64,000 bases of DNA, from NCBI RefSeq assembly GCF_011045215.1, contig NZ_CP049201.1, one strand, 5' to 3'. Below, piece after piece: positions 486-48,870 of the stretch. Under the pieces are notes generated by a model, which saw only the letters and a program-made list of their open reading frames with translations, did no database searches and had not been told where the DNA came from. The first letter of the stretch is position 1; each line of letters starts with the position of its first letter. The position numbers were made by a program, and so were the translations under genes. Source of the DNA: Escherichia coli (GTDB lineage: Bacteria; Pseudomonadota; Gammaproteobacteria; Enterobacterales; Enterobacteriaceae).

Positions 486-789
486 GGCTCATGGTATAAT
501 TTTAAGACATGATCAAGAAGCACGTCTATTGATTCAAAATTATCATTATGATGGAAATGGAATGCCCGACAAATGACGCTACACCCACCTTCTGTACCAG
601 TCGTTCTGCTAATTCTACCGATGCTTCGGTCTGGAGTAGTAAAGTAATATTGGACACAGTTTTATTTTCTCTCTTTTTCGAGGGCTGTATATCAACAGGA
701 AGAATACATCCCTAAGCGGTTAATGCTGGCGTAATCAATAGACCAGCATTAATCACAGATGATTACCAATCAGACAGAAATGGTTAAAT

Positions 790-956
790 CGTCGAATTCA
801 TATTTAATACGTTTTCTTACGCCGCTGAACAGCTTGAAAAGGATGCATATTTTAAATATCAGTGAAATGAACAGTTTATTGCCGTTATTAATAGAAATGG
901 AGGGATAAATACGCGTATTCTACTGTTGCAACAAAAACAACGATATTGATCGGTTT
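790..956 (-). pseudogene. decayed relic: ykgO-like 3' end (790-840) fused to ykgR-like 3' fragment (840-956)
   Basis: 790-840 aligns with 19425-19477 (3' end of ykgO) at roughly 75-80% identity. 840-955 aligns with 20157-20272 at roughly 90%. Minus-strand codons 888-956 translate to KPINIVVFVATVEYAYLSLHFY*, matching the YkgR C-terminus, with no in-frame start (TGA at 957-959). Confidence 0.55.
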
Positions 957-19170: not shown

Positions 19171-19404
19171 GTGAAAATGCAGGCTGCGCCGCAAAGGGAG
19201 GAGACTGAGTGGCGTGTTCAGTCTAAAAGAGAGTTGATGCCAGCATACAGGGGCGAAGCTGGTCAACAAGTCAACATTAAGATAATGGAATATTCGGAGA
19301 GAAACGTCAGGCAGTTGGCCTCAAATGAACAGGAAGAATATATCCGCAGGAAAATTAATGTTGGTGTTATAAACACACCAACATTAAACCGATCTGATTA
19401 TTAA
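19171..19404 (+). CDS. ykgL: small uncharacterised protein YkgL
   Basis: 77-codon ORF (possibly starting at the second Met) in the position expected for ykgL; no recognisable domain. Confidence 0.4.
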   Translation: MKMQAAPQREETEWRVQSKRELMPAYRGEAGQQVNIKIMEYSERNVRQLASNEQEEYIRRKINVGVINTPTLNRSDY

Positions 19405-19438
19405 TCAGACAAATATCGTTAATTCGTCGAATTTTAAA

Positions 19439-19579
19439 TCAACGTTTTTTCTTACGACCCTGAACGGCCTTAAAACGTGGATTAGATTTACAAATCACAT
19501 ATAGCCGTCCTTTTCGCTTCACAATCTGACAGTCTGGATGGCGTTCTTTTGCGGTACGAAGAGAGTTAAGAACTTTCAT
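19439..19579 (-). CDS. ykgO: ribosomal protein L36 paralog (non-zinc-ribbon type)
   Basis: Minus-strand translation [46 protein letters not shown] (46 aa); the start ATG overlaps the ykgM stop in a TGATG arrangement. Confidence 0.85.
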
Positions 19580-19842
19580 CACGCCCCCTTTTTCGTGCTA
19601 ACAAAACGACCAAAACGTTGGGTGAATCGTGCAACATTTCCTTCTGATGCCACTGTTCTCAGCTTCCCTGTATAGAACGGGTGCGATTTAGAAGAGACAT
19701 CAATTGTCACGTATGGATACGTTACGCCATCCAGCTCAATCTCACGGTCTGTTTTGATAGTCGAGCCGATTTTAAAGTACTCATCAACACTGGTGTCGTG
19801 GAACACCACAGTACGATACTCAGGATGGATATTGGGTTTCAT
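19579..19842 (-). CDS. ykgM: ribosomal protein L31 paralog (type B, no zinc ribbon)
   Basis: 87 aa from [23 protein letters not shown]…; AGGTGA Shine-Dalgarno upstream; the ORF-track GTG start three codons earlier was rejected. Confidence 0.9.
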
Positions 19843-19853
19843 CATTTTCACCT

Positions 19854-19871
19854 GTTATGTTATAACATAAC
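19854..19871. promoter_or_regulatory. Zur-box-like perfect palindrome upstream of ykgM
   Basis: GTTATGTTATAACATAAC is an 18-bp perfect palindrome 12-29 nt upstream of the ykgM ATG; ykgM-ykgO is a known Zur-repressed operon. Confidence 0.6.
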
Positions 19872-20204
19872 CGTAAAGATACATGCTCATCCGGATCATT
19901 TCAACACCCAATCCCTGTGACCCTTTGTGGATGTGGAATTTCCGCAACGGGGAACTCTGGCATTGTTAGCAGCCGTTGGCGACGCTCCCATAAACGCCTG
20001 GATGAGTGATTGATGATGGTTTTGCTGAGAGTATGGATTTTTCGAGAATGGAGGTTATCTCCACTTTACTGGCCGATGATTTATCGCAGTATGATTGATT
20101 ACCTGACAGCGTGTATTCCTCTCCCACGGATATAATAATTACTTACAAAAAGGGAGAGGATGCATATTTTAAATATCACTGAAGTGAACAGTTTATTGCC
20201 GTTA

Positions 20205-20306
20205 TTAATAGAAATGGAGAAATAAATAGGCGTATTCTACAATTGCGACAAAAACAACGATATTAATCAGTTTATGACTGATTTGTTGTACTTTATTCTC
20301 TTTCAT
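20205..20306 (-). CDS. ykgR: small hydrophobic protein YkgR
   Basis: Minus-strand ORF translates exactly to MKENKVQQISHKLINIVVFVAIVEYAYLFLHFY (33 aa), which I recognise as YkgR. Confidence 0.7.
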   Translation of the reverse strand: MKENKVQQISHKLINIVVFVAIVEYAYLFLHFY

Positions 20307-20779
20307 TGGTACTTCCTCGCTTTAAAAAAGAGCGCACTTCGTAAGTGCCCTTATATAAATAACGAGTTTGGTCAACCAATTTTTTGACATGTATCACAAA
20401 TTTGAATAGATGTATTACATCGGCTATCTTTTATTGCACCAACGTCATTGATATATGTCGCCTGAAGTCAGTTCCGGGAATGAGTCTGATCTCAAGACTG
20501 GCCCAGTCCTGGCGTTGATTGGCGCTGAGGAGCATATCGCATCTCATTATAATGTCGTATCTCCTGGGGTGTTATACAAGATATCGTTGTTGGTAACCTG
20601 GGCGAGGAATTGAGCTCTATTAAACCGTCAACTATGCCGGATACATACTGGATTACACTGAAGGCACGCCTTATGAGAGAACGTGCCGCAGTGACGGGTT
20701 AATTATCTGAAAGAATTTGTGAGGCTGTATCGGTTACTCATTGATTTGATAGTTTTACTCTCGGGAGAGTAATAGATAT

Positions 20780-21922
20780 TTAATCCATTAACGGAAACCA
20801 GCCAGTTCCTTTCGATGCCTGAATTTGATCCCATAGTTTATCCGGAATGGTTAATTCAGGAACAAGTTGTGGATTAAGGGTTGTTTGAATTTCATGGCCT
20901 CTACCTGATTCAGCTAAAGTCACCCATTCTGGATTTATCACCAGCCCTTTACCGATCGCAACAAGTGGCAGGCCAGTGGAAATTGCTTCTTGAGCCTGAG
21001 ACGGTGTGCGTATTTTACCTGCAGCGATTACCGGCACTCTGCCTGCAATATGATTTAAAATCAATTCAATAGTTCGGGGGCCATTTGGCGACTCAACAGG
21101 GTAGCTATCGTTAATACTGACCAGCGAGGTATGTATATACGAAATACCGGATGAAATGAGCCGATCAAGGAGTTTATAAGTATCCTCTATCCGCAGCCCC
21201 CCTGTTGCAGATTCTTCAGGAGATATTCTGTAACCGATGGCAAAGGGCTTTGTCGCATATTCATAGACTACATTTTTTACTTCCTGTAATACGGCCAGCG
21301 GGAAGCGCATACGTCCTTCGAGATCTCCTCCCCATCGGTCATTACGCTGGTTAAATAGAGGGGAGAAGAAATTCTGTAGAAGGAATCCGTGCGCACCATG
21401 AAGTTCAATGCCATCAAAACCTGCTTTAATCGCCCTTTTTGTGACATCTCCGAATGCTCTAATGGTTTCCTGAATTTCGTTTTCAGTCATTTCCCTGCTT
21501 TGTACCACTCTCTTCATAAAGTCACCAGATTTTACGCTTGATGCGCTGGCACTAATAACATCGTTATTTGGTACAAGCTCCGGGATGGCTTTATTACCGG
21601 CGTGGAAAATCTGCAAAATAGCCGGAGCACCCCCACTTTTGGCTGCCGCTGCTAACTTTTCAAGGCTGTTAATGAAACGGTCGTCATACGCGGCAAATTC
21701 ATGAGTAAACCCAATGCCGCTTGGCGTGACATAGGTACATCCTGTTATTACTAAACCAACATTTTGTGAGCGGCGTTTATAAAATTCGAGTTCTTGCTCA
21801 GAGATGGTTCCATCAGGATTCGCTGACCAGGTCGTCATAGGAGCCATAACGATACGATTACGTAGCTTTATTTTTTCTGTCAGCATAAAAGGAGAAAACA
21901 ATGATGGGTGTTTATTTGTCAT
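20780..21922 (-). CDS. Old Yellow Enzyme family NADH:flavin oxidoreductase
   Basis: 380 aa with OYE hallmarks (…MAPMTT…, GFDGIELHGAHGFLL, …HAGN…). Confidence 0.8.
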   Translation of the reverse strand: MTNKHPSLFSPFMLTEKIKLRNRIVMAPMTTWSANPDGTISEQELEFYKRRSQNVGLVITGCTYVTPSGIGFTHEFAAYDDRFINSLEKLAAAAKSGGAPAILQIFHAGNKAIPELVPNNDVISASASSVKSGDFMKRVVQSREMTENEIQETIRAFGDVTKRAIKAGFDGIELHGAHGFLLQNFFSPLFNQRNDRWGGDLEGRMRFPLAVLQEVKNVVYEYATKPFAIGYRISPEESATGGLRIEDTYKLLDRLISSGISYIHTSLVSINDSYPVESPNGPRTIELILNHIAGRVPVIAAGKIRTPSQAQEAISTGLPLVAIGKGLVINPEWVTLAESGRGHEIQTTLNPQLVPELTIPDKLWDQIQASKGTGWFPLMD

Positions 21923-22156
21923 AACAATACCTCAAATGTTTATCTGATTTTGATGCGTATGTTTTAACTGGTTAGTTGTTGCCAGCTTTGGAACCAAGAG
22001 TTCTGGCTTTATTTATAATCCCTTTAAAGGGTTTCTAATAATTGAGTTGCTGCTTTTTTGTTTTTTAATGAAATTTCTTTTTGAGTAATTTTATTATTGT
22101 TGTGTAGTCAATAAAGGATAAATGTCAGGGAGATAAGGAATCTCCCTGTAAAATTA

Positions 22157-23077
22157 TTACAAATGTGTTTTATAAAAAGGAATTAATTTATCGAGTGCCT
22201 GTTTTACAGGTTCTGGCTTATCATACAGGTCGTAATGTGAATAACCTTCAACCACGACCAGCTCTTTATGTTTTGAAGCAGCGCGGCCAATAATTTCGCA
22301 GCCGTCACGGTAGGCACCAAATGCGCCCACTCTATCGCCCACCACAACCATTATTGGTTGAGTTAACAGGACTTCTGCAAGATGAAATGCATCCCAACCC
22401 ACGGCAACAGTCTGATGTGAGAATAGCGAACGATTTACCCCATTAGGTGCATAGCCTCGTGGCGAACGATAATATTCTGTGGCTTCAAAAAGGTCTATTT
22501 CTGTTAATCCCGCTTCAAGAGCTGCATCCGGAGAAGAGGGGAGTAAATCATCTACGCGAAGTTTTGCGCCGTTAGCTTCGTCTGTTCTTTGTTGCGCCAT
22601 TGCTTCGAGTGCTCCGATAGGATTAAACGCTGTAAATCCCTCACGCATAAGACGCCCGTAGTTTGCACCCGTGACAGTACCAATAGCTTTAATTCGACGT
22701 TCTGTCATTGCGGCATTAATGGCATATCCACCTCCACCACAAATACCCAGTACACCAATACGCCCGGCATCAACGTAAGGTAAGCTGGTAAGGTAATCAA
22801 CGACAATGCTGAAGTCTTTTACTCGCATTGTTGGATCTTCCAGATAACGCGGTTCCCCACCGCTGCTTCCCTGAAAACTGGCATCAAAAGCAATGACGAT
22901 AAAGCCAGCTTTTGCCAGGGCGGCACCATACACACTACCCGATGTCTGTTCTTTGCAGCTTCCAATTGGATGGGCGCTGATAATGGCAGGATACTTTTTT
23001 TCACTATTAAAATCGTCAGGGAAATAGATATCAGCAGCTATATCCCAGTAAGTGTGTTTTATCGAAACAGTTTTCAT
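22157..23077 (-). CDS. alpha/beta hydrolase, dienelactone-hydrolase-like with Cys at the nucleophile elbow (cytoplasmic paralog)
   Basis: 306 aa; motifs FDASFQGSSGGEPR, GRIGVLGICGGGG and KELVVVEGYSHYDLYD are collinear with the 2236-3393 hydrolase; no signal peptide. Confidence 0.75.
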   Translation of the reverse strand: MKTVSIKHTYWDIAADIYFPDDFNSEKKYPAIISAHPIGSCKEQTSGSVYGAALAKAGFIVIAFDASFQGSSGGEPRYLEDPTMRVKDFSIVVDYLTSLPYVDAGRIGVLGICGGGGYAINAAMTERRIKAIGTVTGANYGRLMREGFTAFNPIGALEAMAQQRTDEANGAKLRVDDLLPSSPDAALEAGLTEIDLFEATEYYRSPRGYAPNGVNRSLFSHQTVAVGWDAFHLAEVLLTQPIMVVVGDRVGAFGAYRDGCEIIGRAASKHKELVVVEGYSHYDLYDKPEPVKQALDKLIPFYKTHL

Positions 23078-23233
23078 TTCAAGCTCCGGGGATTTGCCTA
23101 AACAGATTTAAATATCATTTCTATTATCCGCAACTGGCATTTGTGTTCATATCGAGAACGGCGTAATAGTATGACTTGTATTGGTTATCATCAATGGTCT
23201 AATATCTATCACAGTGTTAAGTTAAGGTTTACA

Positions 23234-24160
23234 ATGATGAAAATAGAGCCTTCAATTTTGCCTTCTCTTGCCTGGTTTGCGCTTATTGTTCGTGCCGGCA
23301 GTTTTTCCAGAGCCGCTTCTGAAATGGGTATTACGCGGGCCGCATTGTCCCAGAATTTAAAATCTCTTGAGGAACGTCTTAACACCAAGCTGATATACCG
23401 TACGACCCGCAATATGTCGCTTACTGAGGAAGGACAGCGTCTGTATGAAGTGCTGGTGTCGGCTTTGGGGCAAATTGATGATGCTTTGAAAGATGTTGGT
23501 GATACCCAACTTGAACCTACAGGCCTGTTGAGAATAAATTCCTCCCGTGTTGCAGCACGGATGCTTGTTGAGCCTCATATTGGCGAGTTTCTTACTCGTT
23601 ACCCCAAAACAAAGATAGAACTCATTATGGATGACGGTTTATCTAACATTATTGCGGACGGCTGTGATGTGGGCATACGTCTTGAGCAAGGACTGGATGA
23701 GCATATGACTGCCGTTCCTGTTGCTCCGCTTATTAAACTGGTTACTGTGGCATCGCCAGATTATTTAAAAGAACACGGTATTCCTGAAACGCCTCAGGAA
23801 CTGAGTAACCATAATTGCCTTCGGTTGCGGCATAAAAGTAGCGGTGCACTCTCTGCATGGGAGTTTTCTAATGTTGCGGGCGGGAATGAAGAGTTCGAAA
23901 TAGAGGTTTCAGGTAAGTATATTTCTAATGATGACGAAAGCATGATACGAATGGCGCTGAATGGAACGGGTATCATTCAACATCTGGATTTTGCAATCGC
24001 TGAACATATCAATGCGGGCAAGTTACAGCCGATTCTTGAGGATTGGGCTGTTTCATTTCCTGGATTTTATATTTATGTTTCATCACGGGTGAGAATGCCC
24101 TCTAAAGTTCGTGCTTTTATTGATTTTATGGTGGAGAAAAGAGTAAAACTCGAAAATTGA
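23234..24160 (+). CDS. LysR-family transcriptional regulator
   Basis: Start set at ATGATG (MMKIEPS…) with AAGG upstream; HTH …AGSFSRAASEMGITRAALSQNLKSLEERL…; divergent from the hydrolase at 22157-23077. Confidence 0.8.
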   Translation: MMKIEPSILPSLAWFALIVRAGSFSRAASEMGITRAALSQNLKSLEERLNTKLIYRTTRNMSLTEEGQRLYEVLVSALGQIDDALKDVGDTQLEPTGLLRINSSRVAARMLVEPHIGEFLTRYPKTKIELIMDDGLSNIIADGCDVGIRLEQGLDEHMTAVPVAPLIKLVTVASPDYLKEHGIPETPQELSNHNCLRLRHKSSGALSAWEFSNVAGGNEEFEIEVSGKYISNDDESMIRMALNGTGIIQHLDFAIAEHINAGKLQPILEDWAVSFPGFYIYVSSRVRMPSKVRAFIDFMVEKRVKLEN

Positions 24161-24300
24161 TGATATGTGTCAGAATATCGGTAAGAAGAATGGCGCAATC
24201 GTGAGGATACGTTTATTCATAATAAATCTCCTGAAAGTTTAGAATTATTTTCGATACAGCCAGATTATCATTGTTACTAATAATGTGGCTAAAATAATAG

Positions 24301-27167
<2,867 letters not shown>

Positions 27168-27605
27168 TTATCGTTCATGAGAAGCATAACGTAAAGAGAA
27201 GAGCTCGATTAGACGGCAGGATTTGTCAGGGGTTATGAACGAAATTCATAAATCTGTTTGAGTGTTGCGATGGGTAGTGCAAGTTCGATATCTCCGCAAT
27301 TTACAGTCCGATAAAGGAAAATTAATATCCATAAAAAATATATCGGTTTATCCTGGCGTATATACCTACTTCGACGTATTTCTAATAGTTGCTAATTAAA
27401 GGCAGGTCATTATTATTCACTCTGAATAATGAATTATTCACTGTCCGCAGAGTAAGAAATATAACTTAAGTATCTATTTAATGACTTGCACAAAAAGCTA
27501 AATTTTCACCCATAAATAAAAATATAATCCCGCGCCCAACCACCTGATGAGTGGCTACAGGCACTGGATATATTAGGTGGCGGTGTACTTTCTTACATAA
27601 AGGTA

Positions 27606-27650
27606 TTTCCTTTTCTGCGGAAAAGGAAACCGGGAAATCCCCGGTTTTTC
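27606..27650 (+). promoter_or_regulatory. leader stem-loops upstream of eaeH (terminator-like hairpin plus overlapping alternative hairpin)
   Basis: Hairpin TTTCCTTTT/AAAAGGAAA (27606-27629) overlaps by 3 nt with hairpin AAACCGGG/CCCGGTTT (27627-27647), which is followed by a T-run; 68 nt upstream of the eaeH ATG. Confidence 0.35.
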
Positions 27651-27717
27651 TGACAAGCAGACGCCATTATTTGTGTCTGCCTATGTTCGTTAATTCGTTC
27701 ATCAGGAAATTATCTCA

Positions 27718-30700
27718 ATGTCACGTTATAAAACAGGTCATAAACAACCACGATTTCGTTATTCAGTTCTGGCCCGCTGCGTGGCGTGGGCAAATATCTC
27801 TGTTCAGGTTCTTTTTCCACTCGCTGTCACCTTTACCCCAGTAATGGCGGCACGTGCGCAGCATGCGGTTCAGCCACGGTTGAGCATGGGAAATACTACG
27901 GTAACTGCTGATAATAATGTGGAGAAAAATGTCGCGTCGTTTGCCGCAAATGCCGGGACATTTTTAAGCAGTCAGCCAGATAGCGATGCGACACGTAACT
28001 TTATTACCGGAATGGCCACAGCTAAAGCTAACCAGGAAATACAGGAGTGGCTCGGGAAATACGGTACTGCGCGCGTCAAACTGAATGTCGATAAAGATTT
28101 CTCGCTGAAGGATTCTTCGCTGGAAATGCTTTATCCGATTTATGATACGCCGACAAATATGTTGTTCACTCAGGGGGCAATACATCGTACAGACGATCGT
28201 ACTCAGTCAAATATTGGTTTTGGCTGGCGTCATTTTTCAGGAAATGACTGGATGGCGGGGGTGAACACCTTTATCGACCATGATTTATCCCGTAGTCATA
28301 CCCGCATTGGTGTTGGTGCGGAATACTGGCGCGATTATCTGAAACTGAGCGCCAATGGTTATATTCGGGCTTCTGGCTGGAAAAAATCGCCGGATATTGA
28401 GGATTATCAGGAACGCCCGGCGAATGGTTGGGATATCCGCGCAGAGGGCTATTTACCTGCCTGGCCGCAGCTTGGCGCAAGCCTGATGTATGAACAGTAT
28501 TATGGCGATGAAGTCGGGCTGTTTGGTAAAGATAAGCGCCAGAAAGACCCGCATGCTATTTCTGCCGAGGTGACCTATACGCCAGTGCCTCTTCTGACAC
28601 TGAGCGCCGGGCATAAGCAGGGCAAGAGCGGTGAGAATGACACTCGCTTTGGCCTGGAAGTTAACTACCGAATTGGCGAACCTTTGGCGAAACAACTCGA
28701 TACGGATAGCATTCGCGAGCGTCGGGTACTGGCAGGCAGCCGCTATGACCTGGTTGAGCGTAATAACAACATCGTTCTTGAGTACCGCAAATCTGAAGTG
28801 ATCCGTATTGCTCTGCCTGAGCGTATTGAAGGTAAGGGCGGTCAGACACTTTCCCTGAGGCTTGTGGTCAGCAAAGCAACTCACGGACTGAAAAATGTGC
28901 AGTGGGAAGCGCCGTCATTACTGGCTGAAGGTGGCAAAATTACCGGTCAGGGTAGTCAGTGGCAAGTAACGCTCCCTGCTTATCGTCCAGGCAAAGACAA
29001 TTATTATGCGATTTCTGCGGTTGCCTACGATAACAAAGGCAATGCCTCAAAACGCGTGCAGACAGAGGTGGTCATTACCGGAGCAGGTATGAGCGCCGAT
29101 CGCACGGCGTTAACGCTTGACGGTCAGAGCCGTATTCAAATGCTTGCTAACGGTAATGAGCAAAAACCGCTGGTGCTGTCTCTGCGCGACGCCGAGGGCC
29201 AGCCAGTCACGGGCATGAAAGATCAGATCAAGACTGAACTAGCCTTCAAACCGGCTGGAAATATTGTGACTCGTTCCCTGAAGGCCGCTAAATCACAGGC
29301 AAAGCCAACACTGGGTGAGTTCACCGAAACTGAAGCAGGGGTGTATCAGTCTGTCTTTACTACCGGAACGCAGTCAGGTGAGGCAACGATTACTGTTAGC
29401 GTTGATGGCATGAGCAAAACCGTCACTGCAGAACTGCGGGCCACGATGATGGATGTGGCAAACTCCACCCTGAGCGCTAACGAGCCGTCAGGTGACGTGG
29501 TTGCTGATGGTCAGCAAGCCTATACGTTGACGTTGACTGCGGTGGACTCCGAGGGTAATCCGGTGACGGGAGAAGCCAGCCGCTTGCGATTTGTTCCGCA
29601 AGACACTAATGGTGTAACCGTTGGTGCCATTTCGGAAATAAAACCAGGCGTTTACAGCGCCACGGTTTCTTCGACCCGTGCCGGAAACGTTGTTGTGCGT
29701 GCTTTCAGCGAGCAGTATCAGCTGGGCACATTACAACAAACGCTGAAGTTTGTTGCCGGGCCGCTTGATGCAGCACATTCGTCCATCACCCTGAATCCTG
29801 ATAAACCGGTGGTTGGGGGGACAGTTACGGCAATCTGGACGGTAAAAGATGCCTATGACAACCCTGTGACCAGCCTCACGCCGGAAGCGCCGTCATTAGC
29901 GGGTGCCGCTGCTGTAGGTTCTACGGCATCGGGCTGGACAAATAATGGTGATGGGACGTGGACTGCGCAGATTACTCTCGGCTCTACGGCGGGTGAATTA
30001 GAAGTTATGCCGAAGCTAAATGGACAGGATGCGGCAGCAAATGCGGCAAAAGTAACCGTGGTGGCTGATGCGTTATCTTCAAACCAGTCGAAAGTCTCTG
30101 TCGCAGAAGATCACGTAAAAGCCGGCGAAAGCACAACCGTGACGCTTATTGCAAAAGATGCACATGGCAACGCTATCAGTGGTCTTTCGTTGTCGGCAAG
30201 TTTGACGGGGACCGCCTCTGAAGGGGCGACCGTTTCCAGTTGGACCGAAAAAGGTGACGGTTCCTATGTTGCTACGTTGACTACAGGCGGAAAGACGGGC
30301 GAGCTTCGTGTCATGCCGCTCTTCAACGGCCAGCCAGCCGCCACCGAAGCCGCGCAGTTGACGGTCATCGCCGGAGAGATGTCATCAGCGAACTCTACGC
30401 TTGTTGCGGACAATAAGGCTCCGACCGTCAAAACGACGACGGAACTCACCTTCACCGTGAAGGATGCGTACGGGAACCCGGTCACCGGGCTGAAGCCAGA
30501 TGCACCAGTGTTTAGCGGTGCCGCCAGCACGGGGAGTGAGCGTCCTTCAGCAGGAAACTGGACAGAGAAAGGTAATGGGGTCTACGTGGCGACCTTAACG
30601 CTGGGATCTGCCGCGGGTCAGTTGTCTGTGATGCCGCGAGTGAACGGCCAAAATGCCGTTGCTCAGCCACTGGTGCTGAACGTTGCAGGTGACGCATCTA

Positions 30701-31971
30701 AGGCTGAGATTCGTGATATGACAGTGAAGGTTAATAACCAACTGGCTAATGGACAGTCTGCTAACCAGATAACCCTGACCGTTGTGGACAGCTATGGTAA
30801 CCCGTTGCAGGGGCAAGAAGTTACGCTGACTTTACCGCAGGGTGTGACCAGCAAGACGGGGAATACAGTAACAACCAATGCGGCAGGGAAAGTGGACATT
30901 GAGCTTATGTCAACGGTTGCGGGAGAACACAATATTTCCGCTTCGGTGAATGGTGCTCAGAAGACGGTCACGGTGAAATTCAACGCGGATGCCAGCACCG
31001 GTCAGGCAAACCTGCAGGTAGACACCGCCGTTCAAAAAGTGGCAAACGGCAAAGATGCCTTTACGCTGACGGCGACCGTTGAGGATAAAAATGGTAACCC
31101 TGTTCCAGGGAGCCTGGTGACCTTTAATCTGCCCCGGGGTGTCAAGCCGCTTATAGGCGATAATGTCTGGGTGAAAGCCAACGATGAGGGGAAAGCCGAG
31201 TTGCAGGTGGTTTCAGTGACTGCCGGAACGTATGAGATCACGGCATCGGCAGGGAATAGCCAGCCTTCGGATACGCAGACTATAACGTTTGTAGCCGATA
31301 AGGCTACCGCAACCGTCTCCGGTATTGAGGTGATGGGCAACTATGCGCTGGCGGACGGCAAAGCCAAACAAACGTATAAAGTTACGGTGACTGATGCCAA
31401 TAACAATTTGGTGAAAGATAGCGACGTGACGCTAACTGCCAGCCCGGCTTCGTTAAACCTGGAACCGAATGGCACTGCGACAACGAATGAGCAAGGGCAG
31501 GCTATTTTCACCGCCACCACTACTGTTGCGGCGACATATAAACTCACGGCGCAAGTGAGTCAGACCAACGGTCAGGTATCAACGAAAACTGCCGAATCTA
31601 AATTCGTCGCGGATGATAAAAACGCGGTGCTCACCGCATCATCTGATATGCAATCTCTGGTGGCGGATGGGAAATCGACTGCGAAGCTGGAGGTGACCCT
31701 GATGTCGGCAAATAACCCCGTTGGCGGGAATATGTGGGTCGACATTCAGACGCCGGAAGGGGTGACGGAGGAGGATTATCAGTTCCTGCCGTCGAAAAAT
31801 GACCATTTCGTGAGCGGAAAAATCACGCGTACATTTAGTACCAGCAAGCCTGGTGTCTATACATTCACATTTAACGCCCTGACCTATGGCGGGTACGAAA
31901 TGAAGCCAGTGACGGTGACCATTACCGCGGTGGATGCCAATACGGCAACGGGCGAGGAGGCGATGAAATAA
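27718..31971 (+). CDS. eaeH: intimin/invasin-like inverse-autotransporter adhesin with tandem bacterial Ig-like domains (intact)
   Basis: 1417 aa; N-terminus MSRYKTGHKQPRFRYSVLARCVAW… and more than eight internal repeats of the pattern T[LV]T[AV].D..GNPV.G (Big-type domains). Also known as fdeC. Confidence 0.85.
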   Translation: MSRYKTGHKQPRFRYSVLARCVAWANISVQVLFPLAVTFTPVMAARAQHAVQPRLSMGNTTVTADNNVEKNVASFAANAGTFLSSQPDSDATRNFITGMATAKANQEIQEWLGKYGTARVKLNVDKDFSLKDSSLEMLYPIYDTPTNMLFTQGAIHRTDDRTQSNIGFGWRHFSGNDWMAGVNTFIDHDLSRSHTRIGVGAEYWRDYLKLSANGYIRASGWKKSPDIEDYQERPANGWDIRAEGYLPAWPQLGASLMYEQYYGDEVGLFGKDKRQKDPHAISAEVTYTPVPLLTLSAGHKQGKSGENDTRFGLEVNYRIGEPLAKQLDTDSIRERRVLAGSRYDLVERNNNIVLEYRKSEVIRIALPERIEGKGGQTLSLRLVVSKATHGLKNVQWEAPSLLAEGGKITGQGSQWQVTLPAYRPGKDNYYAISAVAYDNKGNASKRVQTEVVITGAGMSADRTALTLDGQSRIQMLANGNEQKPLVLSLRDAEGQPVTGMKDQIKTELAFKPAGNIVTRSLKAAKSQAKPTLGEFTETEAGVYQSVFTTGTQSGEATITVSVDGMSKTVTAELRATMMDVANSTLSANEPSGDVVADGQQAYTLTLTAVDSEGNPVTGEASRLRFVPQDTNGVTVGAISEIKPGVYSATVSSTRAGNVVVRAFSEQYQLGTLQQTLKFVAGPLDAAHSSITLNPDKPVVGGTVTAIWTVKDAYDNPVTSLTPEAPSLAGAAAVGSTASGWTNNGDGTWTAQITLGSTAGELEVMPKLNGQDAAANAAKVTVVADALSSNQSKVSVAEDHVKAGESTTVTLIAKDAHGNAISGLSLSASLTGTASEGATVSSWTEKGDGSYVATLTTGGKTGELRVMPLFNGQPAATEAAQLTVIAGEMSSANSTLVADNKAPTVKTTTELTFTVKDAYGNPVTGLKPDAPVFSGAASTGSERPSAGNWTEKGNGVYVATLTLGSAAGQLSVMPRVNGQNAVAQPLVLNVAGDASKAEIRDMTVKVNNQLANGQSANQITLTVVDSYGNPLQGQEVTLTLPQGVTSKTGNTVTTNAAGKVDIELMSTVAGEHNISASVNGAQKTVTVKFNADASTGQANLQVDTAVQKVANGKDAFTLTATVEDKNGNPVPGSLVTFNLPRGVKPLIGDNVWVKANDEGKAELQVVSVTAGTYEITASAGNSQPSDTQTITFVADKATATVSGIEVMGNYALADGKAKQTYKVTVTDANNNLVKDSDVTLTASPASLNLEPNGTATTNEQGQAIFTATTTVAATYKLTAQVSQTNGQVSTKTAESKFVADDKNAVLTASSDMQSLVADGKSTAKLEVTLMSANNPVGGNMWVDIQTPEGVTEEDYQFLPSKNDHFVSGKITRTFSTSKPGVYTFTFNALTYGGYEMKPVTVTITAVDANTATGEEAMK

Positions 31972-48046: not shown

Positions 48047-48870
48047 CCTCTTGATACGTTATATCTGTACGGTTAAGCCCTTAGTATCGATTGATGATTG
48101 CCAGGCAACAGATAATAAAAAAGAAAAGAACTATTGAAGCCCAAAACCTACATTTGGACTGTTGTGAATGTTCAATAAGCTTAGTCTTATTTAATGTAAA
48201 TATTGGTGCTAATTTGAAATGACGCTTTATTCATGGGGAACGCGTAGCGCAAATCAACTAAAATCAATGTAACCGTTTGTTGTTTAAGGTTTAATTGTCT
48301 GTGTCTGATATTTTATTGATTGTTTTAAATATTGTTTTTATTGTCATTGTTATAATGTTGGCTATCTATTGCTGAATGGATTCAGTCTTAAAAGGCAGGT
48401 TGTTAAGGGATAGGCATAGAGTAATGACGTGTATGCATAACCAACATCTTTACTCATTATGTCATTGAATGTTGACGCTATGTGTTTATGAGGTTGAGGT
48501 ATTTTCAGTTGATCTGGATTGTTAAATTCATATAATGCGCCTTTACTCATGAGTGGGCATCAATACGTAGTGGGAAATTATAAATATCGAAATAGTCCAA
48601 CTACTTCTTCATTACCAAAAATGAGTATCTGAATTTTAATATTGCATTCTTGCGTGATTATCTCCTGAGTTTGACTTGTGATTACCTTTTTAAGGTATTT
48701 AGCGTAACTGTTTTTGAGCGAGCATCAGAGGTAAAGATAATCTTCTTGATAGTGATGTGGGATGTTATACGTATGGCATCGCTAATGTTTATGGTTACCC
48801 CTTATGTGTGCTCAGGAATCCACAGGTAATCACTCATACTGAACAGCGATAAAAGATAAAAGGTGTGTTC

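Follow-up and report, generated by a model that had tools for sequence, protein, structure and literature searches.

The characterized counterpart of the locus described here is the P_L31p operator of Escherichia coli K-12 (Panina et al. 2003; Gilston et al. 2014, PMC4219657). At this K-12 ykgM site, Zur binds as a cooperative dimer of dimers and protects ~30 bp, with the lowest apparent Kd among the four E. coli Zur operators (PMC4219657). The znuA/znuC, zinT and pliG operators share the same 20-bp architecture, with a central TATAACA and RNNNY repeats, and all four operators bind Zur as a dimer of dimers, although pliG is partly different (PMC4219657). What sets the ykgM site apart from these three is its perfect 18-bp palindrome. 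Together with zinT, ykgM forms a high-affinity, high-repression class (560- to 980-fold, as against 7- to 8-fold; PMC4219657), and RT-PCR showed 560-fold repression of K-12 ykgM by Zur (PMC4219657). A ykgM-lacZ fusion was derepressed ~1000-fold by zur::kan or TPEN, a result that does not alone exclude an upstream contribution (PMC7297116). In a different species, Yersinia pestis, Li et al. 2009 (PMC2706843) report for ykgM-rpmJ2 a Zur footprint that contains the box and overlaps the -10 element, and a single Zur-dependent start site by primer extension.

We analyzed a 64-kb stretch of an E. coli genome (the window, here always the whole stretch) in which the palindrome, the -35 and -10 hexamers and the distance to the ATG are the same as in K-12 P_L31p, as are the downstream genes, with 100% protein identity. 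The window differs from K-12 in having C for T at 19873, one base outside the 20-mer, and in its Shine-Dalgarno sequence, which is AGGTGA where K-12 has AGGTAA (G for A at 19849). It also has a 7.3-kb accessory cluster beyond ykgR that the K-12 locus lacks. The best explanation of this arrangement, to which we assign a probability of about 0.93, is that the palindrome is the Zur operator of ykgM-ykgO, that Zur occludes the local promoter and that ykgR is a separate unit.

The ykgM-ykgO operon and its Zur box

The first gene of the operon, ykgM (19579-19842, minus strand), encodes a type B L31 paralogue without cysteine (87 aa, 100% identical to K-12 YkgM), with its ATG at 19842 and its stop codon at 19581-19579. 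It is followed by ykgO (19439-19579, minus strand), which encodes a type B L36 that is also 100% identical to the K-12 protein; its ATG shares 1 nt with the ykgM stop codon (TGATG). RefSeq E. coli genomes matching the locus at up to 98.9% carry the same annotation, type B L31 for ykgM and type B L36 for ykgO. As zinc-free ribosomal protein paralogues, ykgM and ykgO are members of the conserved Zur regulon.

Downstream of ykgO, a terminator-like hairpin with a 13-bp stem and a T-rich tail (19355-19387, minus strand) is common to the operon and the convergent gene ykgL. To judge from a published plus-strand Term-seq 3' end at K-12 312325, this hairpin works on the side of ykgL (PMC7815308). Separately, a region of Rho-dependent termination is on record at K-12 312466 (+), opposite ykgO/ykgM, so transcripts reading through from ykgL enter the ykgMO operon in antisense.

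The putative operator core, GTTATGTTATAACATAAC, lies at 19854-19871 and equals its own reverse complement (18/18), forming two overlapping Zur-dimer sites. Our coordinates confirm the preliminary description of a perfect 18-bp palindrome 12-29 nt before the ykgM ATG, including its symmetry and its distance to the ATG. The core is present once in the window, even when up to three mismatches are allowed, and shuffled sequences predict 0.01 matches. The 20-bp box as defined by Gilston et al. 2014 (19853-19872) matches the IUPAC Zur motif TGWNAYRWTATAWYRTNWCA at 19/20 positions, the sole mismatch being the outermost base. The structure-derived dimer-of-dimers skeleton, RNNNYRNNRYNNYRNNNY, is matched on both strands at all 18 specified positions.

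We scored the window with a 20-bp Zur matrix built from the K-12 znuA/znuC, zinT and pliG operators only, leaving out ykgM. The box at 19853-19872 scored 24.5 bits on this leave-one-out matrix, and the training operators scored 25.7-27.9 bits. The best sites in 100 random 64-kb sequences had a mean of 12.7 and a maximum of 20.7 bits. The matrix scan revealed no second Zur site near ykgR, in the ykgR-ykgM spacer or in a degenerate second copy of the locus elsewhere in the window. The runner-up in the window, at 48052-48071, was rejected as a second Zur site, as its 13.6 bits falls within random expectation. The older odd-centred 23-mer consensus, GAAATGTTATA-N-TATAACATTTC, was also set aside as a description of the site: the palindrome fits it at only 17/23 positions because the ykgM site is even-centred, which reflects the format of the consensus and is no argument against Zur.

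We also considered that the palindrome could be the operator of another Fur-family regulator, such as Fur itself, or a chance AT-rich palindrome, given that all Fur-family boxes are AT-rich inverted repeats. However, the best alignment of the palindrome to the Fur consensus, GATAATGATAATCATTATC, covers 10/19 positions, as compared with the 24.5 bits on the Zur matrix, and the palindrome does not qualify as a Fur box. Moreover, no second copy of the box exists in the window, and its place upstream of ykgM is conserved in 80/80 species. We regard the likelihood of such an origin as negligible.

Judged from its sequence, the palindrome is the Zur operator of ykgM-ykgO, with all the sequence-level features of a Zur box. 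The identity proposed in the preliminary description thus clearly passes scoring against a Zur matrix, and the characterized K-12 P_L31p operator has the identical 18-bp core. By analogy with that identical core, Zur would be expected to bind and repress at the window site as it does in K-12.

Conservation of the box and promoter across species

We compared 80 ykgM loci, one genome per species, from genera including Escherichia, Citrobacter, Kluyvera, Enterobacter, Klebsiella, Salmonella, Serratia, Photorhabdus, Brenneria, Vibrio and Pseudoalteromonas; Yersinia is not among the 80. A Zur box was found directly upstream of ykgM in every locus (80/80), with scores of 13.8-29.3 bits. The distance from the end of the 20-mer to the ykgM ATG is 9-15 nt in 75 of the 80 loci (mode 12) and 18-25 nt in four. 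In the remaining one, the protein match starts at residue 7 and the box lies 12 nt before the ATG of that protein. Anchoring the loci on the box revealed a conserved -10 pattern, TAnnnT, that ends 2-3 nt before the 20-mer, with a conserved TTG 17 nt further upstream. The gene order is maintained as well, with ykgO within ~10 nt after ykgM in 78/80 loci.

Promoter, predicted start and leader

A promoter scan of the minus strand identified a -35 hexamer, TTGAAA, at 19899-19904 and a -10 hexamer, TATCTT, at 19876-19881; the TTG of the former, at the matching distance, and the TAnnnT of the latter are the conserved elements. This sigma-70 promoter, TTGAAA-17-TATCTT (19904-19876), stops 3 nt short of the 20-bp operator. 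Shimada et al. 2014 (PMC3946193) give the same TTGAAA-17-TATCTT for a SELEX peak at which the RpoD holoenzyme bound the ykgM-ykgR spacer in vitro, which supports the promoter. Placing transcription initiation 7-8 nt downstream of the -10 hexamer predicts a ykgM start at 19868-19869 (minus strand), inside the box at position 4-5 of the 20-mer. The hexamer positions thus predict a leader of ~26 nt. The published Cappable-seq supplement lists neither ykgM nor ykgR, and no coordinate in it starts with 31280 or 31332.

The Shine-Dalgarno sequence AGGTGA (19848-19853, minus strand) adjoins the box and lies 5 nt before the ATG. The preliminary description had offered two alternatives, a very short leader and an operator that reaches into the ribosome-binding region; as geometry both hold, with a predicted leader of ~26 nt and a box that abuts the Shine-Dalgarno sequence. 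As Zur binds DNA, this overlap would carry no translational meaning; the overlap that matters would be with the start point and the DNA next to the -10 hexamer, and the arrangement would be one of promoter occlusion. We infer that it is most likely RNA polymerase, rather than the ribosome, that Zur blocks, in line with the published K-12 and Y. pestis results.

In-frame alternative starts for ykgM exist just upstream of the annotated one, an ATG at 19845 and a GTG at 19851 (minus strand). The annotated ATG at 19842 is favoured because of the 5-nt Shine-Dalgarno spacing and the cross-species N-terminus MKxxIHP.

A palindrome beside a Shine-Dalgarno sequence could also act at the RNA level, as a leader hairpin controlling ykgM translation or stability. 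The full palindrome does fold as RNA (-6.8 kcal/mol, z -2.5) and it adjoins the Shine-Dalgarno sequence. However, with its predicted start inside the palindrome, the native mRNA would lack the 5' arm, and the leader RNA from the predicted start is essentially unstructured (-2.0 kcal/mol, z -0.4). The Shine-Dalgarno sequence is outside the stem, and it is the Zur-contacted positions that are conserved across species. The palindrome sequence varies so little between species that no compensatory pattern is needed. A search of 19300-20800 against Rfam at permissive thresholds matched no RNA family. Control of ykgM through such a hairpin is extremely improbable.

An antisense sRNA candidate, ECS017, has been described at K-12 312802-312893, with a length of 92 nt and a northern band of ~275 nt (Shinhara 2011, PMC3175480). 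Its equivalent in the window is at 19867-19958 (+), with 88/92 bases identical. The 5' end, at 19867, falls within the Zur box and only 1 nt away from 19868, the predicted sense start. Read on either strand, the palindrome contains a -10-like TATGTT. It is conceivable, though we consider it unlikely, that the operator controls two opposed promoters at once, that of ykgMO in the sense direction and that of ECS017 in the antisense direction. If so, Zur occupancy or polymerase competition could set ykgMO output or yield a zinc-responsive antisense RNA spanning the ykgM promoter.

The upstream gene ykgR

On the same strand as ykgM, ykgR (20205-20306, minus strand) encodes a small membrane protein of 33 aa, 100% identical to that of K-12. 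Its stop codon is 362 nt from the ykgM ATG, in agreement with the ~360 bp given in the preliminary description, which asked whether ykgR is co-transcribed with the zinc-regulated operon or insulated from it.

Were ykgR, ykgM and ykgO a single operon, the ykgR promoter would supply substantial ykgMO mRNA and Zur would act mainly as an elongation roadblock. The genes lie on one strand, and a terminator scan found no canonical hairpin with a U-tract between ykgR and ykgM. Among the published K-12 Rho-dependent regions, none is reported between the two genes, the nearest on the same strand being upstream of ykgR at K-12 313613. Very tight Zur binding could also, in principle, halt elongation.

Against a single operon, the sigma-70 promoter immediately upstream of the box is conserved in all 80 species compared, and 78 of these have the box-promoter-ykgM-ykgO unit but no ykgR; a ykgR homologue upstream of ykgM was found in only 2/80 loci, those of E. 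albertii and a divergent Escherichia. The RpoD holoenzyme binds in vitro within the ykgM-ykgR spacer, and a scan of 20200-20780 around ykgR found no Zur-like site (best 1.3 bits on the Zur matrix). K-12 ykgM mRNA is 560-fold lower with Zur present, and this effect was measured inside ykgM, so it bounds read-through in zinc-replete cells.

Between the two genes, a stable, conserved GC-rich hairpin, CCTCTCCC...GGGAGAGG, follows ykgR (20112-20162, minus strand, with the hairpin proper at 20118-20162; -18.9 kcal/mol, z -4.4). Its pairing is preserved through one-sided changes in E. albertii and in locus L007, and high similarity among Escherichia species extends no further than this hairpin, which also argues against a single operon. 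In the K-12 Term-seq data of Adams et al. 2021 (PMC7815308), a minus-strand RNA 3' end is listed at 313047. It corresponds to 20112 in the window, lying 6 nt past the hairpin, 93 nt downstream of the stop codon of ykgR and 270 nt short of the ykgM ATG. This end is on 2/3 growth-condition sheets, including LB OD 0.4, and absent from the third (PMC7815308). It is classed as "orphan", that is, not formally assigned to ykgR, and its counts are moderate, only ~2x the lowest minus-strand counts listed (PMC7815308). By its tail, AAUACACGCUG, which lacks a U-tract, the hairpin does not qualify as an intrinsic terminator and was not called by the terminator scan. The RNA 3' end may reflect either non-canonical termination or trimming back to the stem.

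A single ykgR-ykgM-ykgO operon is therefore very unlikely. The published K-12 Term-seq and the comparative data suggest that ykgR is most likely a separate, insulated upstream unit. For the question of co-transcription or insulation, insulation is thus the best answer, based on the phylogeny, the 3' end, the hairpin and the lack of a Zur site.

On the other side of ykgR, a terminator-like hairpin, GCACTTACGAAGTGC, followed by a T-run is present at 20324-20348 (minus strand), ~20 nt before the ykgR Shine-Dalgarno sequence. With no space left for a promoter downstream of it, this hairpin would either terminate transcription of the upstream oxidoreductase gene, in overlap with the ykgR promoter, or belong to a ykgR leader. 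The K-12 Term-seq data list no ykgR-associated 3' end.

The 7.3-kb accessory cluster (20400-27700) lies between ykgR and fdeC (27718-31971). It encodes an NADH:flavin oxidoreductase, two aldo/keto reductases, two LysR regulators and an alpha/beta hydrolase, and is found at >=80% coverage in 1784/5426 E. coli genomes. Given where it lies, the ykgP pseudogene of K-12 may be a remnant of the cluster's oxidoreductase gene.

A relic copy of the locus

Alignment revealed a degenerate second copy of the locus at 691-956 (minus strand), made up of the end of ykgL, the ykgO tail and ykgR codons 12-33. One segment, 840-956, matches 20157-20273 at 91.5% and covers the start of the intergenic region and ykgR codons 12-33. 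The other, 691-840, matches 19325-19475 at 73.5% and covers the ykgL end, the terminator and the ykgO tail. The relic lacks the 681 bp that separate these matches in the intact locus (19476-20156), a stretch that holds ykgM in full, with its promoter and box, together with the greater part of ykgO and the 3' arm of the hairpin on the ykgR side; one breakpoint of the gap falls within the 5' arm of that hairpin. The ykgR-like frame opens directly after a TGA and holds codons 12-33 only, and PGAP annotates the equivalent sequence as a ykgR pseudogene missing its N-terminus. The scan of 600-1200 found no Zur-like site in the relic region (best 1.6 bits). The relic has indeed lost the box, as first described, since the 681-bp gap covers it.

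The relic adjoins a LysR-family gene at 1186-2070. A 551-base query with the relic (600-1150) was found at >=80% coverage in 613/5426 complete E. coli genomes.

Discussion

We propose that the palindrome works as a zinc-dependent switch on the ykgMO promoter. When zinc is present, two Zn-loaded Zur dimers would bind the palindrome cooperatively. The palindrome starts 3-4 nt past the -10 hexamer and is predicted to cover the start point and the first ~15 transcribed bp, and by covering the start region, Zur would exclude RNA polymerase from TTGAAA-17-TATCTT and keep the operon silent. When zinc is scarce, Zur would leave, and the unstructured leader of ~26 nt with its good Shine-Dalgarno sequence would allow the zinc-free paralogues of L31 and L36 to be strongly synthesized. 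ykgR would be a separate, Escherichia-specific transcription unit, whose RNA probably ends at the hairpin ~270 nt before the ykgM ATG.

The Zur operator of ykgM-ykgO is real and conserved, but it is ordinary, already known and explained. Our analyses clarify its architecture, in that the box sits on the predicted start point, at a short, fixed distance from the start codon in Enterobacterales, Vibrio and Pseudoalteromonas. They also clarify that the conserved zinc-regulated unit excludes ykgR. The Zur site is a textbook element of zinc homeostasis, by which ribosomes switch from zinc-binding L31 and L36 to their zinc-free paralogues, freeing scarce zinc.
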